Source of the DNA: Candidatus Bathyarchaeia archaeon
Lineage (GTDB): Archaea; Thermoproteota; Bathyarchaeia; Bathyarchaeales; Bathycorpusculaceae
Direction of reading: 5' to 3'
DNA: 64,000 nucleotides
Assembly (NCBI GenBank): GCA_050015395.1
Contig: JBEKBM010000016.1
Span: 11,510-75,509, forward strand
Program-made: the position numbers and the translations under genes
Notes under the pieces: model-generated
What the model was told of the DNA's origin: nothing
The model's database searches: none
What the model saw: the letters and a program-made list of their open reading frames with translations, nothing else
Shown here: positions 1,157 through 35,521 of the stretch, piece after piece
How positions within the stretch are numbered: position 1 is the first letter of the stretch
How the letters are laid out: each line of letters begins with the position of its first letter

Positions 1157-1158
1157 GT

Positions 1159-3283: not shown

Positions 3284-3607
3284 ACTTTGATCCTCCTTTT
3301 AAGTTATGGGAATCATTGGTAATCGGAGGCACTACTGACAGCCCTAGTATAAAAGTGTAGAGGGTCAATTCAAACAAATCTTAACAATAACCAATAAAAC
3401 CAGCTTTTCAACAATGAACCTTTAAATCGTTAGGGATTGGAGAAAGTAGGTGTTTGCTCATTCCTTTTCTGATTTAAGACTAATTTATCGGTCCATTTGC
3501 ACATTTTCAGCAAGAAAATCGCTTACATTAAGCAAATGGAATAGACATAAAGAATGCGCATAATATCAAAAGAAAACTTTACCGATTTGTAAATAGTTAA
3601 GCGGAAG

Positions 3608-4036
3608 CTACCTTGCCTTTGGCTGTTCGTGGGCTTCACTTTTGTTTTCTTCCGAAGCTTGTGCCACCTGTATTTTTTCTGCTGCAACTTTCGGCGAAAT
3701 CTTTGGCCGGAGACATCGACTATCCATATCCATATTTTTGAGGTCTAAAACGCCTTTCACATGTGCCCGTCCACATTCCTCCATAACTTCTGGAGCGGTT
3801 TTTGCAGGCGTAGCAATTATGGCTAAATCAACAGGTTCAGGAATCTGATCGACTGTTTTGTATGTTTTAACTCCTAAAATCTCGGTTCGAATATTCACGA
3901 AGTAAACTTTGCCAACATAACCCAGTTGAGTAAAATTTTTTGCTATAGCATATCCAACTGAGCCTTCGACTTCACTGGCTCCAATGATGGCTACATTTTG
4001 AGGGTTGAAAATCTTGTCAAGGTTTAATGTAACCAT
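3608..4036 (-). pseudogene. Truncated CoA-binding N-terminus of acyl-CoA ligase/Pat paralog
   Basis: First ~95 aa align with 15190..17856 protein (VAIIGAS, DLAIIATPA, MEECG), then unrelated tail and stop. Confidence 0.75.
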
Positions 4037-4227
4037 TTCTTAATTTAACCTCTGAGTTATTGGGTCGTGTAACGGCATAAATAAGTTTGTTGTGTCTTCG
4101 TTTTTCTTTGACGAAATTCAATATTCTAAAAAGCAAAACTAATGCTTAAAGATTACATAGTTCGGATAACTTGACATTTGTGGACCGTTTTCATTTCTTT
4201 AAGTGTTAAGGTCTAGCAGAACTTCCT

Positions 4228-5211
4228 TTATTGTTCCGTCATCTTTCTTCTGAGGATTGATGACGGTAACGAGTACATGTAGAACGTTCCGATTGGATCT
4301 TTGATTTGGCTTATTAGATTCTCAACGTCTTCCTCAGAGTGATGCTCCTGTTCTCCTTCCAACCCGAGGATAGAGGCTAACGCGCTAAGCATAGCTGCGC
4401 CCTGTTCTATCGAGTTCGGACAAGGCCCGCCGCATCCTGTGCAGGGCATGTCAACGGTCAAGCACTTAGCTTCGCATCCGCCGCGAGTTGCTGGTCCCAT
4501 GCATATTATTCCCTGTTCAAGTAGGCACTTTTCTGGTTCAGGAGTCTTCTCATGAACGCGGTATATCTTCGAGATTCTTTTGTCTTCCTTTTTTCTTTGG
4601 CATTCGTCACACACAGACTTCAATGGTGCAAGCACCGAACCCTTTGGAGGCAGTGCTTTTTTCGCTACGGCTTCAACAGCGTTCACTATTAATTTAACTG
4701 GAGGCGGACAGCCGGGAATGTAGTAGTCCACATCAACAGTCTGATCTAAAGTCTTCACAGTGTCGTAGAATTCTGGAAGCTTCAAAACGCCTTCTTTCGC
4801 TTCAGTCTTGGTTTTGGGAAGCACTCTGCTTGGATTGGAGGTGGATTTGGTTTCCAAGTAGACCTTGTTGAAAATCTCTTTGCGATTATGGAGGTTTGCC
4901 AGTCCTGGTATGCCCCCCTCTTGAGCGCAGGAGCCGAATGCTACAAGCGTCTTGGACTTTCGTCTCAGGAGTTTAGCCATGTGTTCTTGTTCTTCGCTTC
5001 TGACTGAACCGTTGAAGAAGCATATGTCCATGTGTTTATCAGGCATGGCTTCGACGTCTTTGTACTTGACGTCCATGGCTACAGGCCAGAACACTATGTC
5101 CGCCATTTGCACCACATCTAATATTTTCTCGTTTAAGTCCAACACTGCTATGTCGCATCCACCGCAACCTGCAGCCCAGTAGAAGCCCAGTTTCAATTTC
5201 TCTTCATCCAT
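4228..5211 (-). CDS. mvhG: F420-non-reducing hydrogenase small subunit MvhG
   Basis: GFYWAAGCGGCD, FGSCAQEGGIPG, IPGCPP, CLLEQGIICMGPATRGGC; ATG at 5211 preferred. Confidence 0.88.
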   Translation of the reverse strand: MDEEKLKLGFYWAAGCGGCDIAVLDLNEKILDVVQMADIVFWPVAMDVKYKDVEAMPDKHMDICFFNGSVRSEEQEHMAKLLRRKSKTLVAFGSCAQEGGIPGLANLHNRKEIFNKVYLETKSTSNPSRVLPKTKTEAKEGVLKLPEFYDTVKTLDQTVDVDYYIPGCPPPVKLIVNAVEAVAKKALPPKGSVLAPLKSVCDECQRKKEDKRISKIYRVHEKTPEPEKCLLEQGIICMGPATRGGCEAKCLTVDMPCTGCGGPCPNSIEQGAAMLSALASILGLEGEQEHHSEEDVENLISQIKDPIGTFYMYSLPSSILRRKMTEQ

Positions 5212-6115
5212 CTGTTTTTCCGCCTTCACACACTTGCTTTAATATTTTTGAGCAGTCAACTCGCAATTCATTGAAGGATAGTTCATTAGGTGACATTCCC
5301 ATTGCTAGGCCCAGCAATTGAGGATAATGCAGAATTGGAATACCGTAGACTTCATTGAACATCTTTTCAATACGCTGCTGATTCGTGTCGTACATGATGT
5401 GACAGAACGGGCAGATCGTTATCATGGCTTGTGCATCTACTGCTTTGATGTGGGTCAACTTGTCCCTTGCCAACTGCAGGGCAACCTTGTCGCTCACTCC
5501 TACACTCGGGGCGCCACAGCATTCAGTTTCATCCATGTAATCCAGGCATGAGGCACCAGTCGCTTCAATCAGCTTTTTGAGTCCTGTGGGGTTTTCCGGG
5601 TCCTCGAACCCTACAATGTCTTTCGGCCTCAAAATGTGACAGCCGTTGTGCTCCGCAACCTTGACGTTCGATAGAGGTTTGATCACTGAGCGTTTTATTT
5701 TTTCCAGGCCGATATCCTCGATTAGCACTTGTATAAGATGCTTCGGGCTCACTGTCCCCTTGAACTCTAAATTTGCTTCCTTCAAATTACTGTTTATTTC
5801 GTCACGCAGAGACTTATCCTGTTTCAGCATACTTTTGACCTTTTTCAAAGTTCCTGCGCAACCTGGGCACAGTGCCAAAATATCCAAACCTTGCTGCTCT
5901 GCCAAAGACAAATTGCGTGCTGCCAAGATGAGCATTGTTTCATGGCTGACGGGGTCTAATGGAAGACCGCAGCAATTGAACTCTGGCATCTCGATAAGTT
6001 CAACGCCTAGTTTTCCTAGAATTTTCCGAGCCGAAATCTCATACGCGGATACGCGATAGGGAATTGCGCATCCAAGAAACAGGAGATACCTATGTTCGCC
6101 CATCTTACTCACCAT
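5204..6115 (-). CDS. hdrB: Heterodisulfide reductase subunit B
   Basis: Two CCG domains (FNCCG, ECCG), CPGC, CPFC, LHYPQLLGLA. Confidence 0.92.
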   Translation of the reverse strand: MVSKMGEHRYLLFLGCAIPYRVSAYEISARKILGKLGVELIEMPEFNCCGLPLDPVSHETMLILAARNLSLAEQQGLDILALCPGCAGTLKKVKSMLKQDKSLRDEINSNLKEANLEFKGTVSPKHLIQVLIEDIGLEKIKRSVIKPLSNVKVAEHNGCHILRPKDIVGFEDPENPTGLKKLIEATGASCLDYMDETECCGAPSVGVSDKVALQLARDKLTHIKAVDAQAMITICPFCHIMYDTNQQRIEKMFNEVYGIPILHYPQLLGLAMGMSPNELSFNELRVDCSKILKQVCEGGKTDG

Positions 6116-6620
6116 TCTTCTCGACGAGTTTCAGAAAGTGCACCCTTTGCAGAGTCTTCCTGATGCTTTCAGGATTGCCTTTAGGCAAAGGAGGAAGCCC
6201 CAGAATCTCGCGTTTCTTCTGCCTCAACTCCGGAATTTTGTATGCATAACCAGATTCCAGAACGCTTGCGCATTGGTCCTTGAATACCTGAGGCATGCAA
6301 CCCTCTTGAGCCGCAAGATTTCTCAAGACACGAATGACACTTGCTACTTCAACGTCCTGAGGGCATCGGTCTGAGCACGTGAAGCATGCCGCGCAGAGCC
6401 ATAAGGTGTCACTATGCAATACTCTTTCTCTTAGGCCAAGCTGGGTCATTCGAATTATCTGTCTGGGTCTGTAAGTGTCACTGAACCTTGCGATGGGGCA
6501 ATCTGACGTGCATGTTCCACATTGGAAACAGCGCATCAGCTTTTCACCACCCTGTATCTTTGAGATTTCATGTTTGAATTTAGGGTCAATTTCCGACTGT
6601 TTTATCGTTTCTGTTGTCAA
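6105..6620 (-). CDS. hdrC: Heterodisulfide reductase subunit C
   Basis: [12 protein letters not shown] and [14 protein letters not shown]. Confidence 0.92.
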
Positions 6621-7054
6621 GTTTTTACCTCCTTAATCGTTAACGGGTTTGGTCCCAATTCCTTGATCTCTCTTACCATGTCACGGACTACGGCTGCGAA
6701 TTTGTCTCCTTCGCTTGCGGAGATCCACTCCAACCTGACGCGTTTATTCTCGATACCGAACTCTTGTAGGACTTTTTTCAGAAGGGTTATCCTCCGTTTA
6801 GCTTTGAAATTTCCGTTGATGTAGTGGCAGTCTGAGGGCAAATGGCAACCTGCAATGAGCACGCCGTCGGCACCATCTTTGAAAGCTTTTAGGATAAAGG
6901 CTGGGTCAATTCTGCCACTGCACATTACTCGAATAATTATAATGTTCGGCGGATACTGGATCCTACTCACACCGGCTAGATCCGCGCCTGCATAGCTACA
7001 CCAGTTGCAGAGAAAACCGATTATCTTGGGTTCAAAACCGTCGAAGGCAGTCAT
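6617..7054 (-). CDS. mvhD: MvhD 2Fe-2S subunit
   Basis: [34 protein letters not shown]. Confidence 0.93.
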
Positions 7055-10000
7055 CGGTCTTCCTCCAGCAATGCAGCGTCAATCTGTGCAAGAATTTCTT
7101 CGTTCGTGAAGTGCCCTAATGTAATGGCTTTGGTTGGACAGGCTGTGCCGCAGGAACCACACCCTTTGCATAATGCTTCTAACACGTGCGCAACGGGCTT
7201 GCCGTTCTTAATTTGAATTTCAACCGCTCCATAGGGGCACAGATGCTCGCAAACTCTGCAGCCACTGCATAAATCTTCGACCACACTTGCAATGGATCCT
7301 TCCGTCTCAAGTGTTTTCTTCGAAAGCACCGTCGTGGCCCTGGCCGCAGCTGCACATGCCTGAGCAATGCTCTCGTCTAAGTACTTTGGTGAGTGCGCCA
7401 TACCACAGAGGAAGATTCCGTCCGTGGCAAAATCAACGGGTCTGAGCTTCATGTGCGCTTCCAAGAAGAAACCATCCTTTGTTAGGGGCACCTTCAGCAT
7501 CTCTGCCAGGTGCTTGTTTCCGGGATTTGGGACCGTCGCTGCGCTTAAAACCACTAGGTCAGGTTCTAGTTCAACTTCCTGCCTTAAGACTGGTTCCCAG
7601 AAGACAGTCCTGAGCTTTCCGTTGTCTATTGTGATGCGTGGTTTTCTTTCCTCGTCGAAACTTATGAAAAGAGTGCCTTTCGCCGCCGACTCGCGGTAGA
7701 AGTCTTCTTTAAAACCGTAAGTTCTCATGTCCTTGTAAAGAATGTAGACCTCCGCTTCCGGGTCTGTTTCTTTGATTTTGAGAGCGTTTTTTGTGGCTTG
7801 TCCGCAGCATATTCGTGCGCAATTCGGTTTTTCCTTGTTTCTTGCTCCAACGCACTGGATCATCACTACGCTTTTGGCCTTGAATTGACCTTTGGCGAGG
7901 GTTTTTTCCAGTTCGTGCTGCGTTATTATCCTCGGGTCTTCACCGTAGAGGTATTCTGTAGGCGTGTATTCCATGGCCCCTGTGGCTACGATAATTATTC
8001 CGTGTTCAAGTTCCTTCAGCATGTTTGGCTGCTTTATCTTGGACTTGAAGTTGCCTACGAACCCGTAGACGTCTAAGACCTCTGCCTCTGTGTAAATGTG
8101 AATGTTTTCGTTTTTCTTAACCTGCTCGATCAGGGCGTGGAGTTTCTTTTGGGGATCAGTCTTCTCCCCCAGCAGGTAATAGATGTTGCGCAGGTGACCG
8201 CCCAACTCCGGCTCCTTCTCGACAAGGTGTACTTCAAACCCTTGCTTGGCGAGCTCTAAGGCTGCAGTCATTCCTGAAACCCCGCCGCCTATGACTAAGC
8301 CAACTTGAGTGACGTTTATGAGTGGCTTCTTCAAAGGTTTCAAAAGCTTGGCCTTAGCGGTAATCGAACGCACGAGGTCCTTGGCTTTCTTGGTTGCTTC
8401 TTTCGGTTGGTGCATGTGGACCCAGCTGCATTGGTCGCGGATGTTCGTCATTTCAAACAAGTACGGATTCAATCCAGCTTCCTGCACCGTTTCCTTGAAT
8501 AGTGGCTCATGGGTTCGCGGAGTGCACGACGCCACAACCACACGGTTAAGCTTGTTCTGCACAATCTTTTCTTTGATGAGTTTCTGTGTGTCCTGCGAAC
8601 ATGTGTAAACGTTCGCTTCTGCATAAACAACATTGGGCAAAGTCTTGGCGTACTCCACAACCTCGGGAACATTCACCACTCCGTCAATGTTGATCCCGCA
8701 GTGGCAAATGAAGACGCCGATTCGAGGTGGCTCTTGAAGGACATCTCTTTCCGGTGGGTAGCTTCGCGCTGTAACTTGAGTTCCTCTGGCGCTAGCTATT
8801 ATGCTCATAGCTTTGGCTGCAGCTCCGCTTGCTTGCGCTACGCTCTCTGGGATGTCTTTAGGCGCGGAAAAAGCTCCGCAAACGAATATGCCTGGTTTTG
8901 ACGTGCTCATCGGGGCGAACGTTTGAGTTTCGCAAAAATTATATTGGTTAAGCTCAATTCCCAGAACGTCTGCGAGTTTTTCTATATTTTTCGGAGGCAG
9001 CATACCTATGGACAGGACTACCATGTCGAACTCTTCGTTCACGGGCGTTTCATCTTTGACGTAGTGAACAAAAAGATTACCAGTGGCTGGGTCCTCGGTG
9101 ACTGAACCCACGCGTGAACGCATAAATCTTATGCCATACTCTTCTTCAGCACGGTTGCGATATTCGTCAAATTCCTTTCCATACGAACGCATGTCCATGT
9201 AAAAAATTGATGCCGCGAGCGGCGTGGGCGTGTGCTCCTTTGCTATCACCGCTTCTTTGATCCCATACATGCAACAAGCTGCAGAACAATATTTGTTTCC
9301 AACCTTATAATCCCTTGAACCCACACACTGAACGAACGCAACTCTTTTCGGTATTTCACCGTCTGAGGGCCGCAAGACAAGCCCGCCGTAAGGTCCAGAA
9401 GCACTCAATATACGTTCGAATTCGATGCTGTTAACCACGTTTGGGTAGCGTCCGTACCCATATTCAGTTTTGAGCCTTGCATCGAAAGGTTCGAAGCCCG
9501 GCGCGAGTATTATTGAGCCAACCCTCAGTTTGACTTGGCTGTCTTTCTGGTCATACTGAATTGCACCAGCCTTACAGACTTCCTCGCAAGTTCCGCATCC
9601 GATGCATTTTTCGCGGTCGATCAGGTACTTCAGCGGTACAGCCTGCGGATATTCAACGTAAACCGCGCCTTTCTGTCCGAGCCCTTCATTGAAAGAATCA
9701 ACCGCTTCAATAGGACACTTCTGGGCGCACAGACCGCATCCGTTACACTTTTCCTCGATTATGAAACGGCTCTTTCGTTGAAGCCCAACTTCAAAGTTCC
9801 CGGCTTGGCCACTCAAATTCGCTATCTCAGCGTTCGTCAGGATTGTGATGTTTGGGTGTCTTCCGGTAGCCACAAGCTTGGGCGAAAGAATACACATTGA
9901 GCAATCATTTGTAGGAAATGTCTTGTCAAGCTGTGCCATCACACCGCCGATGCTGGGTCCTTTATCTATAAGGTATACCCTGAACCCTGAATCAGCTAGG

Positions 10001-10071
10001 TCAAGTGAAGCCTGAATGCCCGCAACGCCGCCGCCAACAACCATTACTGCGCCGATTTTCTTGTCAACCAT
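7051..10071 (-). CDS. hdrA: Long HdrA-like flavoprotein (two FAD domains, 1006 aa)
   Basis: [43 protein letters not shown], ferredoxin motifs. Confidence 0.9.
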
Positions 10072-10077
10072 CTGTTA

Positions 10078-10851
10078 TTAAGCCTCCAAAGCCTTGTAGA
10101 AAGGCGTGGTCCCTTCAATGTGATCAACCGTGATCATGTTTCTTCTCCGCATTGCAACAATATGCTTGAGAACATCGGTCGGCTTCAGTTCGGTGGCCGC
10201 TGCCAGAGCCTTGATCGGCAACGAGTTGTTCCTCGTTAAAACATGAATTTTGTGACGCAGGAATTCGGCTTCAACTGCCTCGTCGAGAAGGTCCTCAAAT
10301 TCCTCTTGAAGGACTCTTTCACCATAGACATTGCTTTTTTCAGTTAACTCCCTTTCCTTGCCAACTAGAACCCTTAGCCTGAAACCTGCAGCAGCGTCTA
10401 TTGCAGCCGCAAGATTCTCAATCATCTTCGGGTCTGGTTTAGTTCCAGATAAGGGAGATTGACCCAGCTTCCTTATTCGTTCCGTAAATTGCGTCACTAC
10501 TTGGGCGAATCTTTGGCCTTCCGATGCTGAAACCCATTCGAGTTCTAACCTTTCTGAACCCAAACCGCTCAGCGCCAACAGTTTTTTGAGCAGTTTAATT
10601 TTTTTCTCTTCATAAAGATTTCCTTCCGAGTAGTGGCAGTCGCCGGGGTGGCATCCTAAGACAAGGACTCCGTCGGCGCCTCGGGCGAAAACTTGTAGAG
10701 GGATCACCGGGTCTATTCGTCCGCTACACATGACTCTTACCACTCGAATGTTAGAGGGATACTGAATTCTGCTTACACCAGCTAGGTCCGCGCCTGCATA
10801 ACTGCACCAGTTACAAAGAAAACCGATTATCTTGGGTTCGAATTCTACTAC
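10078..10851 (-). CDS. mvhD: MvhD-like protein with C-terminal helical/wHTH-like extension; no canonical start codon
   Basis: Frame extends upstream of the called ORF: [48 protein letters not shown]; in-frame TAG at 10864-10866. Confidence 0.8.
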   Translation of the reverse strand, partial: VVEFEPKIIGFLCNWCSYAGADLAGVSRIQYPSNIRVVRVMCSGRIDPVIPLQVFARGADGVLVLGCHPGDCHYSEGNLYEEKKIKLLKKLLALSGLGSERLELEWVSASEGQRFAQVVTQFTERIRKLGQSPLSGTKPDPKMIENLAAAIDAAAGFRLRVLVGKERELTEKSNVYGERVLQEEFEDLLDEAVEAEFLRHKIHVLTRNNSLPIKALAAATELKPTDVLKHIVAMRRRNMITVDHIEGTTPFYKALEA

Positions 10852-10852
10852 T

Positions 10853-12553
10853 TTAAGACCCCCCTATCGCAGACGTTGCTTCAGCGATAATTTGAGCGTC
10901 GCTGAAGTGCCGCATGTCAATGGCTTTTTCAGGGCAACTTGCGGAACACACTCCACAGCCCTTGCATAAAACATCGTTTACCCTTGCAACTCCATGTTCA
11001 TCCTTTCTTATGGCGCTGTACGGGCACAGCTTGACGCATGTGCCACATCCGGTGCATCTGGTCTCGTCAACACGAGCCGTTATTGCTTCGGTCCTAACCT
11101 TCCCTAGTGCCATAGGGATGCCTGCTCTCGATGCAGCAGCGTAGGCTTGAATGATGCTTTCGGGGACCGTTTTGGGTCCATGTGCGGTTCCACATAAGAA
11201 AATGCCATCTGTCGCGAAATCGACTGGTCTGAGTTTAACGTGTGCTTCCAAGAAGAAGCCGTCTGCCCCTAACGGAACCTTCAGGAGCTTTGAAAGTTCG
11301 GTCGCTTCTTCCGATTTAACGAGCGGGGTAGATAACACTATGAGGTCGGGATCGAGCTCGAGTGTGTAGTTGACCGAGATGTCATGCACCTTAACTGAGA
11401 GTTTGCCGTTTGCGAGTGAACGCACCTCGGGTGGACTGGCATCGTCGTATCTTATGAATTGCACGAAGTTATGCCTAGCCTTCTCATATTGCTCTTCGAA
11501 GTCTTTGCCGTACGCTTGCATGTCTCTGTACAGTATTGAAACTTCCGAGTCTGGAAGCATTTCCTTGATTATCATGGCGTTTTTAAGTGCCATGGTGCAA
11601 CATATTCTGGAGCAGTAGTTTCGTCCACCCACTTTCCCTTCTCTCGCACCGACGCATTGAATCATAAGTATGTTCTTTGGCTTCCCAAGTTTTTCTTCTT
11701 TCATGAGTTTTTCAAGCTCAAGTTGGGTTATAACGTTCCTGTTTTCGCCGTAGCAGTACATTCCGTTGGGCTTAAAAACGTCGGCTCCTGTGGCAACCAC
11801 TATCGTGCCAAACTTGAGCTTTTCTTCGGTCCCATTGTTGTTGAGGGTTACTTCGAAGTTTCCGATGAAACCATCGACACGCTTCACAGTAGAAGACGTA
11901 TAGATTTTGATGTTTGGGTTTGAGCGCGCGGACTGGATGTACTTGCCAAGAACTTCTGAACTCAGCTTATCGCTGGGATACAGCCTGTATAGTTCGCATA
12001 GTTTCCCGCCGAGCTCTTTGTTTTTCTCTACCAGGCTCACATTAAAGCCTTGGTTGGCAAGGCTGATGGCCGCCGTCATTCCTGAAACTCCACCACCGAT
12101 GACGAGTGCTGAAGGTTGAACCTCAATCTCAGGTTCCGTCTGAGGTTCGAGCAGTGCAGCCTTGGCGATAGCCATCTTGACAGTCTCTTTGGCTTTCTCT
12201 GTGGCTTTTTCGGGCTCTCTGGCATGCACCCAGCTACATTGTTCACGAATGTTTGCCATGTGAAACAGGTACTTATTCAGGTTTGCTTCTTCGCATGCAG
12301 CCCTAAAAAGTGGCTCGTGTGTTCTGGGAGTACATGAAGCCACCACTACTCTGTCAAGGTCATATTTCCCGATGGCCTCTTTAATCTTGTACAGTCCTTC
12401 AGATGAGCATGTGTAAAGATTGCCTTCGGCATAGGCAACATTAGGCTGAGTTCTTGCGTACTCTACGACTGCGGGCACGCTTACGACGCCGCCTATGTTG
12501 ACACCACAGTGGCACACGAAGACGCCGATCCGCGGCTTATGTTTGTCGCTCAC
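10853..12553 (-). CDS. hdrA: HdrA-like protein, C-terminal half
   Basis: [36 protein letters not shown]; colinear with second half of the 1006-aa protein. Confidence 0.88.
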   Translation of the reverse strand: MSDKHKPRIGVFVCHCGVNIGGVVSVPAVVEYARTQPNVAYAEGNLYTCSSEGLYKIKEAIGKYDLDRVVVASCTPRTHEPLFRAACEEANLNKYLFHMANIREQCSWVHAREPEKATEKAKETVKMAIAKAALLEPQTEPEIEVQPSALVIGGGVSGMTAAISLANQGFNVSLVEKNKELGGKLCELYRLYPSDKLSSEVLGKYIQSARSNPNIKIYTSSTVKRVDGFIGNFEVTLNNNGTEEKLKFGTIVVATGADVFKPNGMYCYGENRNVITQLELEKLMKEEKLGKPKNILMIQCVGAREGKVGGRNYCSRICCTMALKNAMIIKEMLPDSEVSILYRDMQAYGKDFEEQYEKARHNFVQFIRYDDASPPEVRSLANGKLSVKVHDISVNYTLELDPDLIVLSTPLVKSEEATELSKLLKVPLGADGFFLEAHVKLRPVDFATDGIFLCGTAHGPKTVPESIIQAYAAASRAGIPMALGKVRTEAITARVDETRCTGCGTCVKLCPYSAIRKDEHGVARVNDVLCKGCGVCSASCPEKAIDMRHFSDAQIIAEATSAIGGS

Positions 12554-13866
12554 TGTTTCCGCCCCTTTGCCGTCAACGCGATGGTCTCTGCCGCTCTGGC
12601 AGCCGCTCCGCTGGCTTGGGCCACGCTCTCAGGGATGTCTTTGGGACTTTGGCAGTATCCGCAAATGTAAATCCCCGCGGAAGTTGTGTCCATGGGTGCC
12701 GTGAGCAGGTCCTTGGCTTTGAAGAAACTAGCCTCATCAAGTTCTATTCCCATTTCTTCAGCGAGCCTCTTGTTTTCTGTCTTCGGGATCAAAGCGGGGC
12801 ATAGCACGACGAGGTCGGCATCAAGCTTTTTCATTTCGCTATTCTTTGTGTCCTCGTAGTGGATCTGCAAATTCTTTGTAGCCTGGTCTTCAGCTATACC
12901 GCCTGGATGCGCTTTGATGTATTTCACGCCGTATTCTTCTCTTGCCCTGTCGACAAATTCCTGGAAGCCTTTCCCCACAGCTCTCATGTCAATATACATG
13001 ATGTAAGTTTGAGTTTGCGGAGAGTGCTCTTTCACGAGAATTGCCTCTTTAGTGGCATAAACGCAGCATACTGAAGAACAGAAAGGGAATCTGCCGTGCA
13101 GGTTTCTTGAACCCACACACTGAACGAAAACGACGCTCCTAGGTTCTTTTCCGTCTGAGGGACGGACAAGATGCCCTCCAGTTGGGCCGGATGCACATAT
13201 TATCCTCTCGAACTCCATGGAGGTAAGCACATTTTGGAATCTGCCGTAGCCGTACTCGCCGATAGCCGAGGGATCAAAAATGTCAAAGCCTGTGGCCAAG
13301 ATTATTGAAGCTACATTCAAGTCTATTTCTTCAGGTTTTTGATTGTAGTCAATAGCATTCGACGGGCAGACCTTCTGGCAGACACCGCAAATTTTTCTCG
13401 AAAAGTAAAGACAATGTTCTGCATCTATTGTGGCGACGAGAGGAACCGCTTGCTTAAACGGCATATAAATAGCTTTCCTCTTTCCCAATCCCATGTCAAA
13501 CTCGTTCGGAACCTTAACTGGACACTTCTCCATGCAAGTGCCGCATCCTGTGCATTTGGAGAATTCTACGTAGCGAGGCTTTCGAAGGATTTTCACAGTG
13601 AAATTTCCATCTTCACCTTCAACATGCTGGACTTCTGAGTATGTAAGTAGGCTGATGTTCGAGTGTCTGAGACACTCTATCATCTTTGGAGCAAGTATAC
13701 AAATGGAACAGTCCAAAGTTGGAAAGGTTTTGTCAAGCTGTGCCATGCGTCCGCCTATGCTGGGAGTCTTTTCAATAAGATAGACTTTCGTGCCTCGATT
13801 CGCCAAGTCCAATGATGCCTGAATGCCCGCAATTCCACCTCCGACAACCAGAACTGACTTGGACAT
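12550..13866 (-). CDS. hdrA: HdrA-like protein, N-terminal half
   Basis: [37 protein letters not shown]. Confidence 0.88.
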   Translation of the reverse strand: MSKSVLVVGGGIAGIQASLDLANRGTKVYLIEKTPSIGGRMAQLDKTFPTLDCSICILAPKMIECLRHSNISLLTYSEVQHVEGEDGNFTVKILRKPRYVEFSKCTGCGTCMEKCPVKVPNEFDMGLGKRKAIYMPFKQAVPLVATIDAEHCLYFSRKICGVCQKVCPSNAIDYNQKPEEIDLNVASIILATGFDIFDPSAIGEYGYGRFQNVLTSMEFERIICASGPTGGHLVRPSDGKEPRSVVFVQCVGSRNLHGRFPFCSSVCCVYATKEAILVKEHSPQTQTYIMYIDMRAVGKGFQEFVDRAREEYGVKYIKAHPGGIAEDQATKNLQIHYEDTKNSEMKKLDADLVVLCPALIPKTENKRLAEEMGIELDEASFFKAKDLLTAPMDTTSAGIYICGYCQSPKDIPESVAQASGAAARAAETIALTAKGRKQ

Positions 13867-14051
13867 GAGTTAGGCCCACTTATCTGTGATGGGTAAACGC
13901 GTATATTGTCTAAGGCTAAATATCTTGTGGTTACTAACTTGTTTTTGGGATGTTAAGTGCCATCGACTAATTCCAAAGTTTCTTTCCGTATATGAAAATG
14001 GTGTGCGAAAAATTAATAAATCCAGCAGACAACACATAAAACGGTGTTCAA

Positions 14052-14291
14052 ATGCCAGTGGCATATGTGCTGGCGAAAATAGAAGCCGGCCAAGACAAGC
14101 AGGCGCTTGAGACAATAAGGGAAATGGTTGGAGTCACGTCGATCACTTTGACCTATGGCATATACGACCTGCACGTCGAAGTCAAGTTTGACACAATGGA
14201 AGAACTTGACGAATTCATTTTCGACAAAATACGCAAAGTTAGCGGAATTAAAGAAACGGTGACCTTAGTGGTTCCATCCAAGGGGGTGTGA
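14052..14291 (+). CDS. Stand-alone Lrp/AsnC ligand-binding (RAM) domain protein
   Basis: AYVLAK..TYGIYDLHVEV..IRKVSGIKETVTLVV pattern. Confidence 0.85.
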   Translation: MPVAYVLAKIEAGQDKQALETIREMVGVTSITLTYGIYDLHVEVKFDTMEELDEFIFDKIRKVSGIKETVTLVVPSKGV

Positions 14292-14292
14292 A

Positions 14293-14616
14293 ATGTCTAT
14301 AATAAGCTGCCGGGAAATACACTTCAACCAATGTACCAGTCCAGGTCAAGTCGACGATTTAATCGACAACGTCAAGCAAATAATTGAAGAAATGAAACTC
14401 CCCGCAACCTACAACGTGAAGGTTTTTAAAAACATATTTTCCTGCTGCGGCACAGGAGGCCTTGACTTAATCTTAGAAGTCGTCGGACCAGACGAGGAAA
14501 CACTGAAAGCTATCGACCTGAGAGCCACATCCAGAGTCCTCGAATTCTGCGAGAAACAAGGCTACGGCATGGGCTGCTATCACTCCCTCGGAAAATTTGA
14601 ATCAATAGAAAAATAG
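14293..14616 (+). CDS. Cys-rich hypothetical protein
   Basis: 107 aa, GGGGTG SD, coupled to Lrp gene, SCCG motif. Confidence 0.65.
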   Translation: MSIISCREIHFNQCTSPGQVDDLIDNVKQIIEEMKLPATYNVKVFKNIFSCCGTGGLDLILEVVGPDEETLKAIDLRATSRVLEFCEKQGYGMGCYHSLGKFESIEK

Positions 14617-29106: not shown

Positions 29107-29742
29107 CTAACCAACAACACGCTGCCCCAACAACACACGAAACCCACTTTCTCTTGCAAGAACCGTACAGTTCCCAAAGACTTCGTTGAAGAGAGCAGGC
29201 AGCGTTTTAGCGCCGATTTTAGACCGAATCACCATCTGGAACGTGGCTTTATCCGCCATGACTTTTGCGGCTTCTTTCACAATGGCTTTCACCGTCTCCA
29301 TACCTGCACTAACAGGCGGATTCGAAAGCACACAATTAAACACTAAACCTTCCACAGGCTCATACAAGTAACCAAAACGCACCTCAGCATTGACTATCTT
29401 GTTTAACTCAACATTCCTTTTTGCCAAACGCACGGCTCTCACATTCACATCCGACATAACCACGCTCAGCTTCGGGTTAAGAGCGGCTGCAACTATTCCA
29501 ACAGCACCATAACCGCAGCCAATGTCAAGAACGCAGCCTGTTTTCGGCAGAACCATCGATTCGATTAACAGCCTTGTGCCTGGATCAACCCGCCTCTTCG
29601 AAAAAACGCTTGAAGCAGTCAAAAACTCGAAGCTCTTCCCGCACAGGACGGTTCGAACTAAACCGAACCTCTCCTTTGACTTGGGCTCAGCCACAAAATA
29701 ATGGTCCGTGCTACGGTTGTCCTGATTTATGCTCGCTACCAC
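29107..29742 (-). CDS. RsmC-like small class I SAM methyltransferase
   Basis: HYF, VFSKRRVDPGTRLL, LDIGCGYG, SNPP. Confidence 0.88.
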   Translation of the reverse strand: MVASINQDNRSTDHYFVAEPKSKERFGLVRTVLCGKSFEFLTASSVFSKRRVDPGTRLLIESMVLPKTGCVLDIGCGYGAVGIVAAALNPKLSVVMSDVNVRAVRLAKRNVELNKIVNAEVRFGYLYEPVEGLVFNCVLSNPPVSAGMETVKAIVKEAAKVMADKATFQMVIRSKIGAKTLPALFNEVFGNCTVLARESGFRVLLGQRVVG

Positions 29743-30760
29743 TTTTCCAAACCTTCGGATAAGTGCCCCTAAGCATCAACACTCTCTCTAGAGCAGCAAC
29801 AGCACCATGCCTTAAACTCAACATTTCCTCAGCTGAAACAAGCGCCCTCGCCAACGCAACTGCCTCACCCTTCAACGTGAAAATAGAGAGAATCGAATCT
29901 TTCTCAATGCCGTTTGCAACCTGCAATACGCCTGGAGCAGTCAAGTTTGCACCATGACACAACGCATCAACAGCCGAGTCACGAACCACAATCTTAGGAA
30001 GCAAAAACAACGCCTCTTCCATAGGCACAATAAATTTGTGAAGGATCGCCTCATCTTTTTTCTCTTCCCACTCACCAAACCAGTACGCAACATCATGCAA
30101 AGTAACTTTTGAAGCGCTAGTTTCAGTGAATGATCCCGAGCGTGTCCTGCGCAGTTCCTGCATGTGGGCGCCGACACCTAGGATTTCGCCGATGTCAAAG
30201 CAGAGTTTGCGTATGTACGTTCCAGCCTCGCAGCCAACTTTGAAGAGAACATTACGCCCATCAGTTTCCAAATAGTCAATGTAGTAAATGCGTCTAGTTC
30301 TAAGCTGCCGCTTAACAGAAGAACGCAGGGGCGGACGCTGATAAATTTCATCCTCAAACTCCAAAAGAACCGGCTTAACCTGTTCCTCTTTAGCGTCACC
30401 GTGAAGCTTCATCACGCAAACGTATTCTTTGCCGCTGTAGAGAAACGCCTGAACAACCTTCGTAGCGTCCTCTAAGGTGATGGGTAAAACACCGGTCACT
30501 TTGGGATTTCTCTGGCTTACTGCTTAAGCCTCTAGAGTCCCGCCGTGGCCAATGTTGTTTAGGTGCATGATTTTTTTTACCCACGCGGCAACTTCGTGGC
30601 TTGTTGGACCAGCTGGCTTGTCAAGGTTTATTGTGCCGTACTGGATGTACTCTTTGGCTGGTCTTTCAGAGGGCAGGTGCCCATACTTTGGGCTGGTTGT
30701 GTCCTCTGCTTTCGTCAACAGTTCACGTTTGATTTCCCACGGGGGAATTGTTCTAGGCAT
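29711..30760 (-). CDS. cbf5: Cbf5 RNA-guided pseudouridine synthase, spliced (exons 30532-30760 and 29711-30507)
   Basis: DKPAGPTSHEV, GHGGTL[D]PKVTGVLP, CEAGTYIR, PUA domain; frame restored by removing intron. Confidence 0.93.
30508..30531 (-). other. 24-nt BHB mRNA intron in cbf5
   Basis: GGGA-CTCT-AG^A-GGCTTA(AGCAG)TAAGCC-AGAG-AA^A-TCCC forms a strict hBHBh'; contains in-frame TAA. Confidence 0.92.
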
Positions 30761-31101: not shown

Positions 31102-31606
31102 CCTTATTCAGTCTCCGTAAAAACAAAATACAACAACTGGCAGATATAAGCATAACATAATTTCAATCAAAAATTGAAAGGTAACCCAAAGACGATCTAT
31201 TAAATAACGCATTCAAAAAGTTTTTTCTTAAAATTAAAATTTGCCAGCTGAGCCTAAACCCCACAATAATCACCGACTTGTCGTAAGCACTTGCAAAAAG
31301 CATCTCCTTGATGTTATCTCAGACAACGCTTGGCAGCCGCTTAAGAACCCGTACAGTGCCACTGTAGAGCGTGTTCCTCAACTGGCAAATAATATTCTCT
31401 CACAAAAGAATATAATATTATGCTGGCACCTTCATGCAACAAATAAAGAAATATACTCACAAACTGTATTGAAGGAATCTGCGATGGCAGGCTTGGGTGA
31501 ACACTTCACAGCATCGTTAAGTTTTCAAGTTACTAAAGCTCACTTGCGGAACTACTGTGTATGCAAAAAACTTAAACTGTACTATGTTGTCACTTACGTT
31601 GCTGGT

Positions 31607-31726
31607 GCCGGGGTATCCGAGCCAGGTCTAAATAGGCGGCCAGATTAAGATTGCCTAAGATATGGAGGAGGACTTAAGATCCTCTGGCGCAGGCCTTCGT
31701 GGGTTCAAGTCCCACCCCCGGCACCA
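31607..31726 (+). tRNA. tRNA-Leu(UAA) with 32-nt intron at 22/23 (31632-31663)
   Basis: GCCGGGG/CCCCGGC acceptor, GAGGA-CTTAAGA-TCCTC, long variable arm, TTCAAGT T-loop; BHB-like GTCT/AGAT with TAGGC/GCCTA. Confidence 0.9.
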
Positions 31727-31846
31727 CTATGTTGAAAGTAAGGGTTTTCGAAGCTGTTTTTTCGCTTATTTAGATTAGTTTTATAAGTGTTTCGCATAAT
31801 TTAATTCAATAAGCAATTTGACAAATCTAGGAAAACAGAGAATCAA

Positions 31847-32863
31847 ATGCTAAAGTCTTTGACCATCGGCGGCAAGTATGTAATTTCGAGATTTTGGACA
31901 CATACCCCCTTCATTCTCAGTCACTCAGTGACATCAGCATGCAACTGTAGATGCAAAATATGCAACATTTGGAAGAAGAAACCAAACGCCAATGAGTTGA
32001 CCGCTCGTGAAATTTTCCGGATGTTAGACGAAGCAAAGCGATTGAATTTCGTGGCTTACGTTGCATGGGGCGGGGAGCCCTTGTTGAGACCTGACATTCT
32101 TGACATTTTGAGCCATGCTCACCGCCTAGGATTTTACACGAGCATTATCACGAATGGAACTTTACTCAAAGAGAGAGCTAAAGAAATCGCAAAGATTGTT
32201 GACTTAACCTGGGTTTCTCTCGATTATGATTCCGAATATCACAGTGAAATGCGAGGTTTTGCAGGAACATTTGAAAAAACAATAGAGGGCATCCGAGAAC
32301 TCAGGTCGGCAGGCGGAAGAGTTGCAGTAAACTGTGTGCTAAGCAAACTCAATATAGACGCTGTTGGGAAAATGGGGGAATTGGCAAAAAGGCATCAGCT
32401 TAAACTATCTTTTGACCCAATGGAAGTATTTCCGGGAAGCAACGAAGAGTACGGTTTAGCGCCTAGCCAACGTAAAAAAGTGTTCTCTGAAGTCGCTGTA
32501 CTCAAAGAAAAGGGATACCCCATTCTTAACTCATACGAATACGCGAGAAATCAGGCAAACTTAACCTACTCTTGCGCCCAACCCTTCATTTTCTTGGATG
32601 TATCCGAGGACGGAAAGATCAGACCGTTCTGGTGTCAAAGGAGCAACAAGATGCTGGGAGACCTGAGAAAGCAAAGCCTGAACGAAATAATACATTCCTC
32701 CTCTGTCAAAGATTTCGCCAAAATCTCGCAAGGATGTTGTATTTGCACACACGCCACTGCCTTTGAAACCTCGATTTTCTATTCCGCCCAACGTTTCCTT
32801 TCAAACGTCTATCGCCTGAAAAACCCCTATTTGAGATTCATCGTAGATTTTGCTCTAACGTGA
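31847..32863 (+). CDS. Radical SAM protein with twitch/SPASM-like C-terminus
   Basis: CNCRCKIC, GGEPLLR, TNG, C-terminal Cys. Confidence 0.9.
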   Translation: MLKSLTIGGKYVISRFWTHTPFILSHSVTSACNCRCKICNIWKKKPNANELTAREIFRMLDEAKRLNFVAYVAWGGEPLLRPDILDILSHAHRLGFYTSIITNGTLLKERAKEIAKIVDLTWVSLDYDSEYHSEMRGFAGTFEKTIEGIRELRSAGGRVAVNCVLSKLNIDAVGKMGELAKRHQLKLSFDPMEVFPGSNEEYGLAPSQRKKVFSEVAVLKEKGYPILNSYEYARNQANLTYSCAQPFIFLDVSEDGKIRPFWCQRSNKMLGDLRKQSLNEIIHSSSVKDFAKISQGCCICTHATAFETSIFYSAQRFLSNVYRLKNPYLRFIVDFALT

Positions 32864-33028
32864 ACAATGAAACTTGTTACCTTTTTAACGCAAAATGCCC
32901 CTTCTAAAAATGACGGTCAAACTTAATTTTTGTTTTTGGAAATATCAAAGTCATCTATTACAGTAGTGGTCGTAAAAAAGCAAATTAGGAGGAAACTGGG
33001 AAGTTGCGAATAATATCTCCACTGCGGT

Positions 33029-33064
33029 TGGGTTCAAGTCCCACCCCCGGCACCACTATGTTGA
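33029..33064 (+). repeat. att-like copy of tRNA-Leu 3' end (36 bp identical to 31700-31735)
   Basis: TGGGTTCAAGTCCCACCCCCGGCACCACTATGTTGA. Confidence 0.95.
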
Positions 33065-33379
33065 TTCTGACGGGGGTTTAAACTGAATGAACAATTCCAT
33101 AATCAAATTGCTGTGTATTTTGCTATGAGCGCCTAAATATTTTGGCTCATTTCAAGTCGCCGGATGGCATAATTCGTTCAGGACACGCAAGAGCCTCAAT
33201 TAGCGTGGTCTCAATTCCATCAGGAACTAATTCGCTTACAGTTAGTAAAACTTAAATCTGGGCAGCTACCTAAGATTATCCGTAGCAATTTGGCGACAAG
33301 CCAGAGTGTCGCAAAGGGATATTTGAGTGAAATTTATCACCTTTGTGGTAGGCTCAGCCTATTTGTCGCCAAATCAAAT

Positions 33380-33880
33380 TTATTTGTTTCTACAGATTTG
33401 GTCCTTCAGCTTTGTAAGGTTAATTATCTTAGCGCCGCAAAGCCTAAGATCCCAAGACGAGCTGTGCTCAAAACTCATAACCTCCACCAGTTTGCCTGCT
33501 TTTAACAAGTATTCAATCGCAGGAAAAATATCCTTGTCACCTGTGCCGAAGATACAGGCATCAAATCTTGCATTCACTAATCCATCAACCAGCGAGTCAG
33601 CCACAATTTGAGTGTCAATTTTCTTTTCTTCTGGTTTCGAAGAACCATACCTGTGAAGCTTGACGAGCTTGAGTGTGTAACCAAATCCGCCAATTTTCTT
33701 AAAGAAATTGATTTCTCCAAGAGAGTTTTCAGTGCTATCATAATAATTTAAATCAACTGGAGTTCTGCCACTAATCATTATTGGCTTAAGCTTGGAATAG
33801 TCTATTCTGACACCAATATCTTCCCCAGCATGAAACAGGTTGGCTCCGTCAATGTAAGCACTTACCCTTATCGGCGAAAC
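33380..33880 (-). CDS. NYN/LabA (PIN-like) domain protein; non-canonical start
   Basis: Upstream extension VSPIRVSAYIDGANLF; EKKIDTQI, GTGDKDIFP, GKLVEV. Confidence 0.85.
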   Translation of the reverse strand, partial: VSPIRVSAYIDGANLFHAGEDIGVRIDYSKLKPIMISGRTPVDLNYYDSTENSLGEINFFKKIGGFGYTLKLVKLHRYGSSKPEEKKIDTQIVADSLVDGLVNARFDACIFGTGDKDIFPAIEYLLKAGKLVEVMSFEHSSSWDLRLCGAKIINLTKLKDQICRNK

Positions 33881-34079
33881 TTTTCCTCCTCAATCTCAAT
33901 TGGTTCAAAAAATATGCGTCTTCCAGAATATAACGCTTTAAGAGAGCTATCTTTATTTGCGTTTCGAAGAACGCGCCATACGTTTCGGCAAAAGTCATTA
34001 AGGTTGTAACTTTGGGTAGAATAACAAAACTTGGAAAGAAAAAAAGAGGATTATGCGGGTGATAATCTCCACTTGGGGC

Positions 34080-34107
34080 TGGGTTCAAGTCCCACCCCCG
34101 GCACCAC
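34080..34107 (+). repeat. Third att-like copy of tRNA-Leu 3' end (28 bp)
   Basis: TGGGTTCAAGTCCCACCCCCGGCACCAC. Confidence 0.95.
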
Positions 34108-35521
34108 CCTCTTGGGAAGCACTCGGGGTTTGTGTGGCGAGAGGTTGTTTTTTGGCCTGTTTTCTGCGTGACCTTGTTTTAGAATTTTTCAAGTTATTGC
34201 GATGGTTCAAACGTAACTCATCATTTTTTACTCTTGCGTGTGGCCAGAAGAATGCGCTTGCAAAAAGCACTATGAACGAAATAAAGACCAGCATAAACAA
34301 GGTGTCATATGCCTGTCCAATAGTGGTTTTCCAAAGGAAACATTGGAAGTAATCCTTAGAGTAAGCGCCAGGGCCAGGCCAACTCCATCCCGCACCACCA
34401 GGACTAGCTTGCCACCACACTGGCCCACTTACGATGAGGTCAAGTTGCCAGAGACTGAAGAAAAGCAAACCCATAGCAGCCATTACGCCTGCAAGGTTAA
34501 TGATGGCGCTTGTCTTTACCATATTCCTCCAGAAATTTCTCATGCGCTCAGGCAATTCTCCTTTTTGTTCCATGCGACCAGTCCACTTGCCACTCAAGTA
34601 GCCCATTGTTGAAAATCGAGCGGTCTCAAATATCCCGTAAACAAAAACGCCTGTGCCCGATAGTAGCATTGCAAAGCCTGAATAATTCATTAGCGTGTTT
34701 TTTGCGTAGGAGCTAGCAAGTAGTGAACCAGTAATGATTAGCATTGAGCCGATGCCGATTGCCCATATGCTTCCCAATATAATTCTCGGTTCGGTATCAC
34801 GGCGGTTTCCGTTTAGGCTCCAGTTGCTTTTTAGGATTGTTACAGCCGTTCCTGACATGCCTAGGCTTAAGATGGCTATCCCGATTAGTAGCATTCCAAA
34901 GCCCGTATAGTTCATTATTGTTTCTTTTGCGTAACTGCCAGCTACTATAGAACCGATAACAGTAAGAACTATTCCGATGCCGACCGATAGTATGCTATAA
35001 GTTAGAAACCTTGGTCTATCTACCCTGATGCCGGCTTGTTTTCTGTTCTTATTTAAGTTGGTCTGCAGCATCCCCAACAATGTTCCGAATATGCCTAAGA
35101 CAAAAAAGCATATTCCAGTTAGCAGCATCCCGAAACCTGCGCAGTTTATTATTGTATTCTTTGCATACGTACCGCCTAGTATAGAGCCAATAATACTCAG
35201 AACCACACCGACACCGATTGCCCATATGCTTAGAAACAGCGTCTTTGGTTTGTTAACTCTAATGCTTGCTGGCTTTGCTTGGCTTAAGCGAGTTTCTACG
35301 GTTGCTGTAGCCGTTGCACACATACCAAAAACAAAAACGGCTATTCCTGCAAGCAGCATGCTAAAGCCTGTATAATTTGTTATTGTTGCTTTCGCGTAAG
35401 AACTAGATATTACAGAGCCAATAACGGCTAGAACTAAACCAATCACAATTACCTTTGTCTTGCTAGAGAGGGCTTCCTGACTTTTCTCCTTAGTTCTTGC
35501 AGGTGCACCCATTTCCCTCAC
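34085..35521 (-). CDS. Multi-pass membrane protein with four internal TM-hairpin repeats
   Basis: GS...(S/T)YAK.T..N..GF.MLL.G motif x4. Confidence 0.8.
   Translation of the reverse strand: MREMGAPARTKEKSQEALSSKTKVIVIGLVLAVIGSVISSSYAKATITNYTGFSMLLAGIAVFVFGMCATATATVETRLSQAKPASIRVNKPKTLFLSIWAIGVGVVLSIIGSILGGTYAKNTIINCAGFGMLLTGICFFVLGIFGTLLGMLQTNLNKNRKQAGIRVDRPRFLTYSILSVGIGIVLTVIGSIVAGSYAKETIMNYTGFGMLLIGIAILSLGMSGTAVTILKSNWSLNGNRRDTEPRIILGSIWAIGIGSMLIITGSLLASSYAKNTLMNYSGFAMLLSGTGVFVYGIFETARFSTMGYLSGKWTGRMEQKGELPERMRNFWRNMVKTSAIINLAGVMAAMGLLFFSLWQLDLIVSGPVWWQASPGGAGWSWPGPGAYSKDYFQCFLWKTTIGQAYDTLFMLVFISFIVLFASAFFWPHARVKNDELRLNHRNNLKNSKTRSRRKQAKKQPLATQTPSASQEGGAGGGT

Follow-up and report, generated by a model that had tools for sequence, protein, structure and literature searches.

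The 64,000-nucleotide window analyzed here, from a Candidatus Bathyarchaeia archaeon of peat, contains a tRNA-Leu gene whose 3' end is repeated downstream, delimiting two short units that each carry a single gene. The question raised by this arrangement is whether the units are minimal gene cassettes that are moved by a recombinase acting in trans and collected at the tRNA as on an integron platform, or what is left of larger elements that integrated at the same gene. Our analysis indicates that the locus is very likely an ordinary tRNA-Leu(UAA) integration hotspot at which at least three elements were stacked and then decayed by internal deletion. The two units, E1 with a radical-SAM gene and E2 with an NYN nuclease gene (Table 1), fit best with CIME-like remnants that tandem accretion left behind.

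Table 1. Features of the tRNA-Leu(UAA) locus, in window coordinates
Feature	Position	Strand	Basis
tRNA-Leu(UAA) gene, CCA encoded	31607..31726	+	ARAGORN after in-script removal of candidate intron
att copy 1 (attL): T-arm, acceptor, CCA and first 9 nt of left arm	31700..31735	+	
Left (P') arm of E1; distal GGGTGAT/GGCGAT motif missing	31728..31765	+	Left-arm alignment (22 arms)
E1 cargo: radical SAM/SPASM protein, 338 aa, intact	31847..32863	+	Pfam PF04055 4.8e-23
Right (P) arm of E1, the "leader" of the initial annotation: purine-rich run, then imperfect palindrome directly upstream of core	32985..33028	+	Alignment of 20 right arms
att copy 2, E1/E2 junction	33029..33064	+	
Left arm of E2, ~45 nt match to left-arm consensus; GGCGATG motif degraded	33057..33100	+	
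E2 cargo: NYN-domain nuclease frame, 163 aa stop-to-stop	33380..33871	-	Pfam PF01936 7.5e-12; PADLOC NYN 1.4e-08
Right (P) arm of E2; class shared with the right arm of the intact G072 element (14.6 kb)	34030..34079	+	
att copy 3, attR of the stack	34080..34107	+	
Older third left arm, a vestige fused to the 3' end of the neighboring membrane-protein ORF	34108..34150	+	Aligns with left-arm consensus

The unspliced tRNA gene was missed by both ARAGORN and Rfam, and removal of a candidate non-canonical intron of ~32-36 nt in the D-arm region (about 31632-31663, with boundaries that are our own reading) led ARAGORN to return tRNA-Leu(taa). This gene is kept in 38 of the 61 relatives searched. The initial annotation had described three tRNA 3'-end copies that delimit units of ~1.3 kb (radical SAM) and ~1.05 kb (NYN). 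These copies were confirmed, as the window has exactly three occurrences of a 28-mer from the tRNA 3' end (at 31700, 33029 and 34080), with none expected from 100 shuffles. Copies 1 and 2 are identical across 36 nt, while copy 3 matches over 28 nt and is 89% identical over 36, giving unit lengths of 1329 bp for E1 and 1051 bp for E2. Both inserts lie between direct repeats of the tRNA 3' end, and at attL the tRNA has been rebuilt. Among viral contigs the 26-nt core had no exact match, a result from which we draw nothing about viruses.

Split tRNAs exist in archaea, and the repeats could in principle be alternative 3' halves of such a gene or an artefact of assembly. Logan contigs do break at the repeats, so the order of E1 and E2 rests on the original assembly. 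We nevertheless regard this explanation as scarcely credible: 24 runs from 22 studies contain 79-98% of the words sampled from the 3.2-kb stretch, and contigs of public runs bridge the att junctions, extending from att copy 1 into E1 and from att copy 2 through E2 and att copy 3 into the flank. The copies also cover the T-arm to the CCA only and are accompanied by element arms, and split or alternative tRNA halves were rejected once the full tRNA had been recovered at copy 1 and the arms had been matched to element arms. Among the joints listed for the contigs of four runs, which drop rare variants, none matched an empty site or the excision of either unit. One joint present in all four (33044 to 34241, with 55 other letters between) is no excision product and represents the G089-like arrangement of a co-occurring relative.

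The sequences that adjoin the att copies identify the family to which the units belong. The initial annotation had proposed an attP arm common to both units, and our alignments of left and right arms bear this out on both sides of the insertions. The left arm of E1 is homologous to the stretch between att and the integrase stop codon in intact elements, and the alignment of 20 right arms likewise took in arms of intact integrase-bearing elements. A strict leader-plus-core pattern matched only 3 of 120 genus genomes and was too narrow for this purpose, so arm alignments of the fetched loci were used instead. The flank beyond att copy 3, which is also found in G004, corresponds to a vestigial left arm, from which it follows that at least three generations of elements were stacked at this tRNA. 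The right-arm motif also lies beside 3' fragments of other host tRNAs (C3:64676, C13:797, C25:47642 and C42:4029) and therefore belongs to the element family and not to tRNA-Leu.

These alignments also clarify the "leader" upstream of the two downstream att copies. The leaders are indeed alike, although the resemblance is clear only over ~30-45 bp beside the core and does not extend to the ~90 bp first described. The SD-like run and the start codon reading into att are likewise present (TTG at 33004 and ATG at 34053), but the frames in which they reach the core differ. In 12 arms the start-like codon stands 29, 30 or 31 nt away from the core, and in one of them the frame is interrupted by a stop, which together argue that the leader is not a conserved translation start. 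Sequence comparison identifies the leader as the right (P) arm of the element and not as the start of a gene, and its palindrome is probably a binding site, as yet putative, for the recombinase or an accessory protein.

In another reading, the leaders would be the int(N) exons of an SSV-type ("suicidal") integrase that was split on integration, with int(C) since deleted. A different integrase family is truly split at the same tRNA in three relatives (G015, G029 and G129), where a 312-313-aa frame leaves the tRNA 3' end and a short MEN(K/Q) frame enters attR, and the TTG frame of E1 enters the core in the frame of this split family. The arms in the window, however, are unlike the right arm of the split elements and match those of elements whose integrase is intact and encoded on the other strand. 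The ATG of E2 enters the core in another frame, the variable spacing and the stop-containing copy also weigh against an exon, and no trace of int(C) was detected in E1 or E2 or after att copies 1 and 2. Among the arms examined, none has a leader ATG that opens a full-length integrase frame through the core. We therefore consider an SSV-type origin of the leaders very improbable.

The initial annotation had further stated that no recombinase is encoded in the window and that the units are att-flanked and free of integrase, and both statements stand. The contig that carries the window (C16) has no PF00589 or PF00239 match; in the host genome PF00589 matches lie only on C4, C7, C8, C12 and C34, and PF00239 has no match anywhere. 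A profile built from 10 integrases and searched against the six frames of positions 31601-34300 found nothing in E1 or E2 (best E 0.63), and it is this lack of an integrase gene or a recognizable remnant of one inside the units that leads us to call them remnants. The cognate enzyme in intact elements is a tyrosine recombinase of about 430-450 aa with an N-terminal zinc ribbon, matching PF00589 at 2.1e-13 and encoded on the opposite strand directly beside attL. Of 120 genus genomes, 110 contain the family, and many of its full-length copies adjoin tRNA-Leu. The integrase search of the host contigs returned fragments only: all host copies of the cognate integrase are broken or partial (best E 4.8e-26), and an intact one is absent from the host genome.

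Comparison with relatives also argues for decay. The locus has the order Cbf5, L14e, tRNA-Leu, a variable stretch of 0.76-14 kb, membrane protein, tRNA-Arg and GT87, and occupancy of the site varies, with different 0.76-14 kb inserts at the syntenic position; the att core was matched in 104 of 120 genus genomes. Intact elements at tRNA-Leu span 5.5-36 kb, with the integrase beside attL and the same two arms as E1 and E2. These include the 14.6-kb G072 element, with a 385-aa integrase frame and a right arm of the E2 class, along with elements of 13.1 kb in G101, about 36 kb in G016 and 5.5 kb in G001. Other att copies are adjoined by integrase stumps of graded length (307, 150, 120, 97, 63, 52, 39, 31 and 22 aa). 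A 2456-bp unit in G003 retains a 97-aa stump, while units of 771 bp in G026 and 767 bp in G089, which are two other species, have the same ends and 90% identity over the distal 680 bp but no stump; by these alignments they are one element lineage at two stages of erosion. The proposal of a family of minimal cassettes on an integron-like platform is not supported by this comparison. Large elements with an integrase and arms of the same kind occupy this tRNA in relatives, and together with the graded stumps and the G003 lineage they amount to what the initial annotation had named as its refutation.

Units without an integrase are frequent in these arrays. Across 41 inter-att intervals, an integrase of at least 300 aa is present in 5, a partial one in about 6 and none in about 30, proportions that are not unbiased because the inspected relatives were chosen for having hits. 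The 41 were kept from 49 listed, and the 8 dropped comprised four that start at an unrelated match upstream and run to the tRNA, two weakly matching, armless ones in L059, one in L105 ending at a 3-mismatch non-att match, and the window interval that ends at tRNA-Arg. The abundance of small integrase-less units in the genus and the recognizable arms on both sides of E1 and E2 speak against decay, and would also fit non-autonomous elements.

This leaves an alternative in which E1 and E2 are functional non-autonomous cassettes moved in trans by the integrase of a co-resident or incoming element, with the tRNA as platform. The history of E1 offers an argument for it. Relative to the copy in G089, E1 has a dS of 0.148, compared with 0.45-0.72 for four flanking genes, and its right non-coding part is 96.4% identical where the flanks are 78-85%. 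This far closer relationship implies that the integrase-less unit or its parent moved between lineages recently, an exchange between species that simple vertical decay would not explain. In addition, a number of small units are found again in 3-4 species, the genus is rich in the cognate integrase family, and the same peat samples contain strains whose arrays differ. The boundaries of E1 point the other way: the distance from the left arm to the shared E1 sequence is 39 nt in one of the two genomes and about 430 nt in the other, which is better explained by independent deletions than by transfer of an att-bounded unit. Many of the recurring small units are, moreover, sub-blocks of larger ones, E1 and E2 have a lost or degraded distal left-arm motif, the interior of E2 has no DNA match elsewhere in the 120 genus genomes, and the host lacks an intact cognate integrase. 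On balance, we judge mobilization of E1 and E2 in trans to be unlikely.

The two cargo genes differ in condition. The radical-SAM gene of E1 has a dN/dS of 0.23 against the G089 copy and is still under purifying selection; its product scores 144 bits against TIGR03961, under the cut-off of that model. The NYN frame of E2 has no ATG, GTG or TTG ahead of the domain, with the first ATG at 33778 lying within it, and the N-termini of nine metagenome homologues place an ATA in E2 where these proteins start with ATG or GTG. The NYN homologues in metagenome contigs are 60-71% identical; no att or integrase was found near them, on contigs that are mostly short. A parent element that combines an integrase with the E1 radical-SAM or the E2 NYN gene was sought and not found.

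In the accretion and decay model that we favor, elements of one family would integrate at tRNA-Leu(UAA) through site-specific recombination. Because their attP includes a tRNA 3' end, every integration would rebuild the tRNA and leave a displaced copy behind. Repeated integration would have piled up at least three elements, from which internal deletions then removed the integrase and most cargo. E1 would have been left with both arms and its radical-SAM gene, E2 with both arms and an NYN gene lacking a canonical start, and the third element worn down to its left-arm vestige. The order of these integrations and deletions is our reconstruction; the palindrome would serve as a protein-binding site, and E1 and E2 would now be immobile unless an incoming relative brought an integrase.

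This model places the locus close to the CIMEs and ICESt1-type islands of streptococci, for which excerpts of PMC5704250 give the CIME definition and a three-step accretion model. As in those islands, integration and transfer genes are lost, attL and attR are kept, and the units are stacked at a tRNA 3' end. E1 and E2 differ in residing in an archaeon, in measuring 1.05-1.33 kb with one gene each, and in having no conjugation context; cis-mobilization is putative here. Portions of PMC8371274 and PMC6563490 describe, for archaea, both integration in tandem and the loss of the integrase once an element has integrated.

Archaeal elements whose tyrosine recombinase stays intact on integration at a tRNA belong to the class commonly called pNOB8-type. 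Our family resembles them in an attP with a tRNA 3' fragment and an unsplit integrase adjoining att, and differs in its N-terminal zinc ribbon and conserved palindromic P-arm motif. We did not find these two features described; excerpts of one review (PMC8371274) mention neither Bathyarchaeota nor zinc. The second integrase family at tRNA-Leu, in the three relatives noted above, is split in the SSV-type manner outlined in parts of PMC7253208, whereas the window units have other arms, an unconserved frame and no int(C). Integrons share with the locus an array of short gene-bearing units with recombination sites between them. The E1/E2 array, by contrast, has no platform integrase, attI or Pc and starts at a tRNA gene, and its recombination sites consist of tRNA 3' ends flanked by element arms instead of attC hairpins. 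Integron cassettes are usually promoterless and share one orientation, whereas E1 has its own upstream region and the two cargo genes lie on opposite strands; with genes facing opposite ways and neither attI nor a resident integrase, the locus does not resemble an integron.

On this reading, the locus provides a clear archaeal case of accretion and decay at a tRNA hotspot, in a host class that is uncultured and ecologically abundant and whose mobile elements are little described. For an integrase family that is very widespread in Bathyarchaeia, it provides the attP anatomy (core, P-arm palindrome and P' arm). It also supplies a marker for recognizing such elements at other tRNAs, and offers an erosion series that illustrates the stranding of single cargo genes in the chromosome. 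A new mechanism would be at hand only if trans-mobilization of such tiny units were real; otherwise the locus reflects known accretion and decay. We attach only a small probability to the broader idea that Bathyarchaeia keep a population of miniature integrase-less elements (0.6-1.5 kb), in which a conserved palindromic P arm and a short P' arm enclose one gene, and that these are moved in trans by the abundant zinc-ribbon tyrosine recombinases of larger elements. Were this so, tRNA genes would be open-ended stacks of exchangeable single-gene units, and the recent exchange of E1 between two species would be an example.

Some smaller observations complete the description. The GC contents of E1 (0.413) and E2 (0.401) fall inside the spread of the window. 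A radical-SAM gene in the intact G072 element was considered as kin of the E1 gene and rejected as unrelated. Radical-SAM homologues of 53-58% identity occur in other Bathyarchaeia or Methanomethylicota; one, at L114, adjoins a tRNA-Pro and an integrase C-terminal stump, and another, at L113, lies beside an integrase-like fragment, placements that are suggestive only.

At the tRNA-Leu(UAA) gene, integrative elements are probably stacked one behind another and in decay, which would make this a locus of an ordinary kind. The initial annotation rightly identified the repeated tRNA 3' end: an exact 28-nt terminal string occurs at three sites in the window (att1 to att3), with none expected by chance (100 shuffles), and att1 and att2 are identical across 36 nt. 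These copies delimit two units, E1 with a radical SAM gene and E2 with an NYN gene, and att1 is the genuine 3' end of tRNA-Leu(UAA), which was missed by ARAGORN and Rfam because it carries an intron of ~32-36 nt in the D-arm region; ARAGORN gives tRNA-Leu(taa) after the candidate intron is cut out in script. The host genome (G000; 42 contigs, 2.59 Mb) is 98.9% complete, and the stretch is present in 24 peat or wetland sequencing runs from 22 studies. The reported absence of a recombinase gene also holds, in that a domain search found no tyrosine or serine recombinase domain on the window's contig, C16.

Coordinates of features in the window, elsewhere in the host genome (G000, contigs C) and in one relative
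Feature	Position	Strand	Remarks
cbf5	29711-30760	-	interrupted by an in-frame stop
cbf5 insert site	30500-30530
tRNA-Leu(UAA)	31607-31726
att1, att2, att3	31700, 33029, 34080		spacing 1329 bp (E1), 1051 bp (E2)
E1 cargo, radical SAM/SPASM ORF		+	338 aa
E2 cargo, NYN frame		-	163 aa
Membrane-protein ORF	34085-35521	-	478 aa
Element/tRNA-derived end of this ORF	34085-34216		final ~35 codons and stop
Second stack	C3:84625-87830	-	partial tRNA copies at ~C3:85900 and 84625
Orphan junction	C9:81448-81678
Arm (purine-rich run and palindrome) directly upstream of tRNA 3' fragment	C3:64676		core tRNA-Leu(TAG)-like, 1.5 kb from that tRNA gene
Same	C13:797
Same	C25:47642		fragment of tRNA-Arg(CCT)
Same	C42:4029
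Same arm, no tRNA fragment	C20:37960, C26:30650
Genes of intact element, relative G072 (locus L101)	190-14382

The tRNA-Leu(UAA) site is an integration hotspot. The gene is kept in 38 of 61 relatives searched and the att core, the shared tRNA-derived part, is matched in 104 of the 120 genus genomes; within the syntenic order Cbf5, L14e, tRNA-Leu, then membrane protein, tRNA-Arg and GT87, the gap between tRNA-Leu and membrane protein holds differing inserts of 0.76 to 14 kb edged by extra tRNA 3'-end copies, and several contigs from relatives terminate at this tRNA. Two tyrosine-recombinase families occur at the site. Family 1 (430-450 aa; PF00589, 2.1e-13; a weak N-terminal zinc-ribbon match; XerA-like in NCBIfam at 2.4e-16, below cut-off) lies directly after attL on the opposite strand, with 70-250 bp between its stop codon and the core. 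Of the 120 genus genomes, 110 contain it, often as several full-length copies each, many of them adjoining att matches (G016, G108, G110, G091, G101, G072, G063, G090). Family 2 (PF00589, 1.5e-14) is split in the SSV manner: in G015, G029 and G129 a 312-313-aa frame emerges straight from the tRNA 3' end, and a short MEN(K/Q)-initial frame enters the far att copy. At these loci (L054, L063 and L091, respectively), which come from mesophilic peat-type Bathyarchaeia, integration of the element has divided its own integrase, and the whole element in G129 is just 2.5 kb. The intact 14.6-kb element of G072 encodes an integrase, a 606-aa unknown protein, an AAA ATPase, a beta-CASP-like metallo-beta-lactamase RNase, an N6/N4 DNA methylase and a radical-SAM protein unrelated to that of E1; the 10 ORFs scanned included no recognisable capsid or conjugation gene.

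Alignment of 22 left arms (element sequence after the core) and 20 right arms (before it) bore out the proposal that both units share attP-arm sequence, as E1 and E2 align at both ends with integrase-bearing elements. Left arms accompanying an intact family 1 integrase conserve 40-45 nt after the core, in which a TATGTTGAAAA-like run is followed by a CCGGGGGTTT-like run and then by GGCGATG or GGGTGAT as the last motif. In the window, a match to this stretch follows att1 and also att2, the final motif being gone in E1 and degraded in E2. The flank after att3 matches it too and hence represents a third left arm, an older one. Right arms have a run rich in purines together with an imperfect palindrome, 10-15 nt before the core, that is either GGTGATATCTCC-like or GGCGATATCGCC-like; the right end of the intact G072 element is of the E2 class, and the other class marks the ends of elements in G101 (13.1 kb), G016 (~36 kb) and G001 (5.5 kb). 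Left and right motif types appear to be matched within units of G072, G110, G101, G016 and G013, a by-eye reading of few units. At other places in the host genome the same right-arm motif adjoins 3' fragments of different tRNAs, and it is therefore a property of the element family, not of tRNA-Leu, providing a portable signature for locating the family's ends. The start codon that the initial annotation saw reading from this "leader" into the att does not open a conserved frame: across 12 arms the start-like codon lies mostly 30 nt from the core (29 in three, 31 in E2), one of the 12 has an in-frame stop, and the E1 and E2 frames reach the core in different frames. We take the leader to be a DNA site and not an ORF.

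Erosion of integrase-bearing elements is seen in stages among the relatives. Family 1 stumps of 307, 150, 120, 97, 63, 52, 39, 31 and 22 aa lie beside att copies, always representing the C-terminal end, the part nearest the core. Among 41 inter-att intervals kept from 49 listed (8 dropped), an integrase of at least 300 aa is present in 5, a partial one in ~6 and none in ~30, proportions that are indicative only because loci were chosen for having matches. One element lineage is caught at two stages, as a 2456-bp unit with a 97-aa stump in G003 and as stumpless units of 771 bp in G026 and 767 bp in G089 that share its left arm and its right end (90% identity across the distal 680 bp; G026 and G089 97.9% identical). 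Other small units recur in 3-4 species, some as sub-blocks of larger units with faded inner att copies. No integrase trace turned up when all frames of 31601-34300 were searched with a profile of 10 intact integrases (best E 0.63), and family 1 persists in the host genome only as broken or partial copies, on C8 (with stops), C12 (121 aa), C11 (39 aa) and C9 (45 aa, adjoining an orphan att). This C9 junction, with no tRNA near it, consists of a right-arm palindrome, a tRNA-Leu(CAG/TAG)-type core and a left arm, followed by the C-terminal stump with stops. Tandem integration and post-integration integrase loss are described for archaeal elements in sections of two publications (PMC8371274; PMC6563490). 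The window's units closely fit the bacterial concept of the cis-mobilisable element (CIME), which has lost integration and transfer genes and kept attL and attR. The initial annotation spotted a real and tidy locus, but its integron-like platform falls away, as every integron-defining feature tested fails here.

A single further species, G089, also has E1 (93% identity over 1271 bp); there it lies directly before the membrane-protein gene with a decayed att and no E2. Identity is 94.5% in the gene and 96.4% in the right non-coding part, against 78-85% in the flanks, and the radical-SAM gene has a dS of 0.148 versus 0.45-0.72 for four flanking genes, so that E1 became common to both lineages well after their split. 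At the left edge, 39 nt separate the repeat from shared sequence in the window, whereas ~430 unrelated bp do so in G089. All four of the peat or wetland runs considered contain the G089-like form as a contig together with the E1+E2 form. The likeliest explanation is that related integrase-bearing elements with the radical-SAM gene next to the right arm would have entered both lineages, each then losing the left part independently; alternatively, E1 may have been mobilised in trans or exchanged by homologous recombination over the conserved att and tRNA flanks. That the small units in general are mini-elements mobilised in trans seems unlikely, and we retain it as a minority reading mainly because of the dS found for E1 and because small units with arms are so numerous in the genus.

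The E1 radical-SAM gene is intact (dN/dS 0.23 against the G089 copy), among protein families its product is closest to a general one (TIGR03961, 144 bits; cut-off 306), and PADLOC viperin-like matches are confined to the radical-SAM core. The E2 NYN frame is without a canonical start, having ATA where nine metagenome homologues show ATG, GTG or an upstream start, and the gene may be dead or oddly initiated.

Downstream, the membrane-protein ORF extends across the remnant left arm to a stop codon within att3, so that its end is mobile-element and tRNA-derived sequence. In cbf5, ~24 nt located precisely where the conserved GTLD motif is encoded form a helix-bulge-helix-like hairpin when folded (-28.5 kcal/mol, z -4.1); by our reading, cutting them out would give back GHGGTLDPKVTG. 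A cbf5 pre-mRNA intron is known from Crenarchaeota, and the insert is presumably of this kind. The second stack in the host genome begins with a tRNA-Leu(UAA)-like copy that has the same intron type and an unpaired 5' acceptor strand, followed by two more partial tRNA copies; its units, of ~1.8 and 1.3 kb, carry a 420-aa unknown protein, a pair resembling HEPN and nucleotidyltransferase, and a wHTH-like protein, all named by eye from translations.
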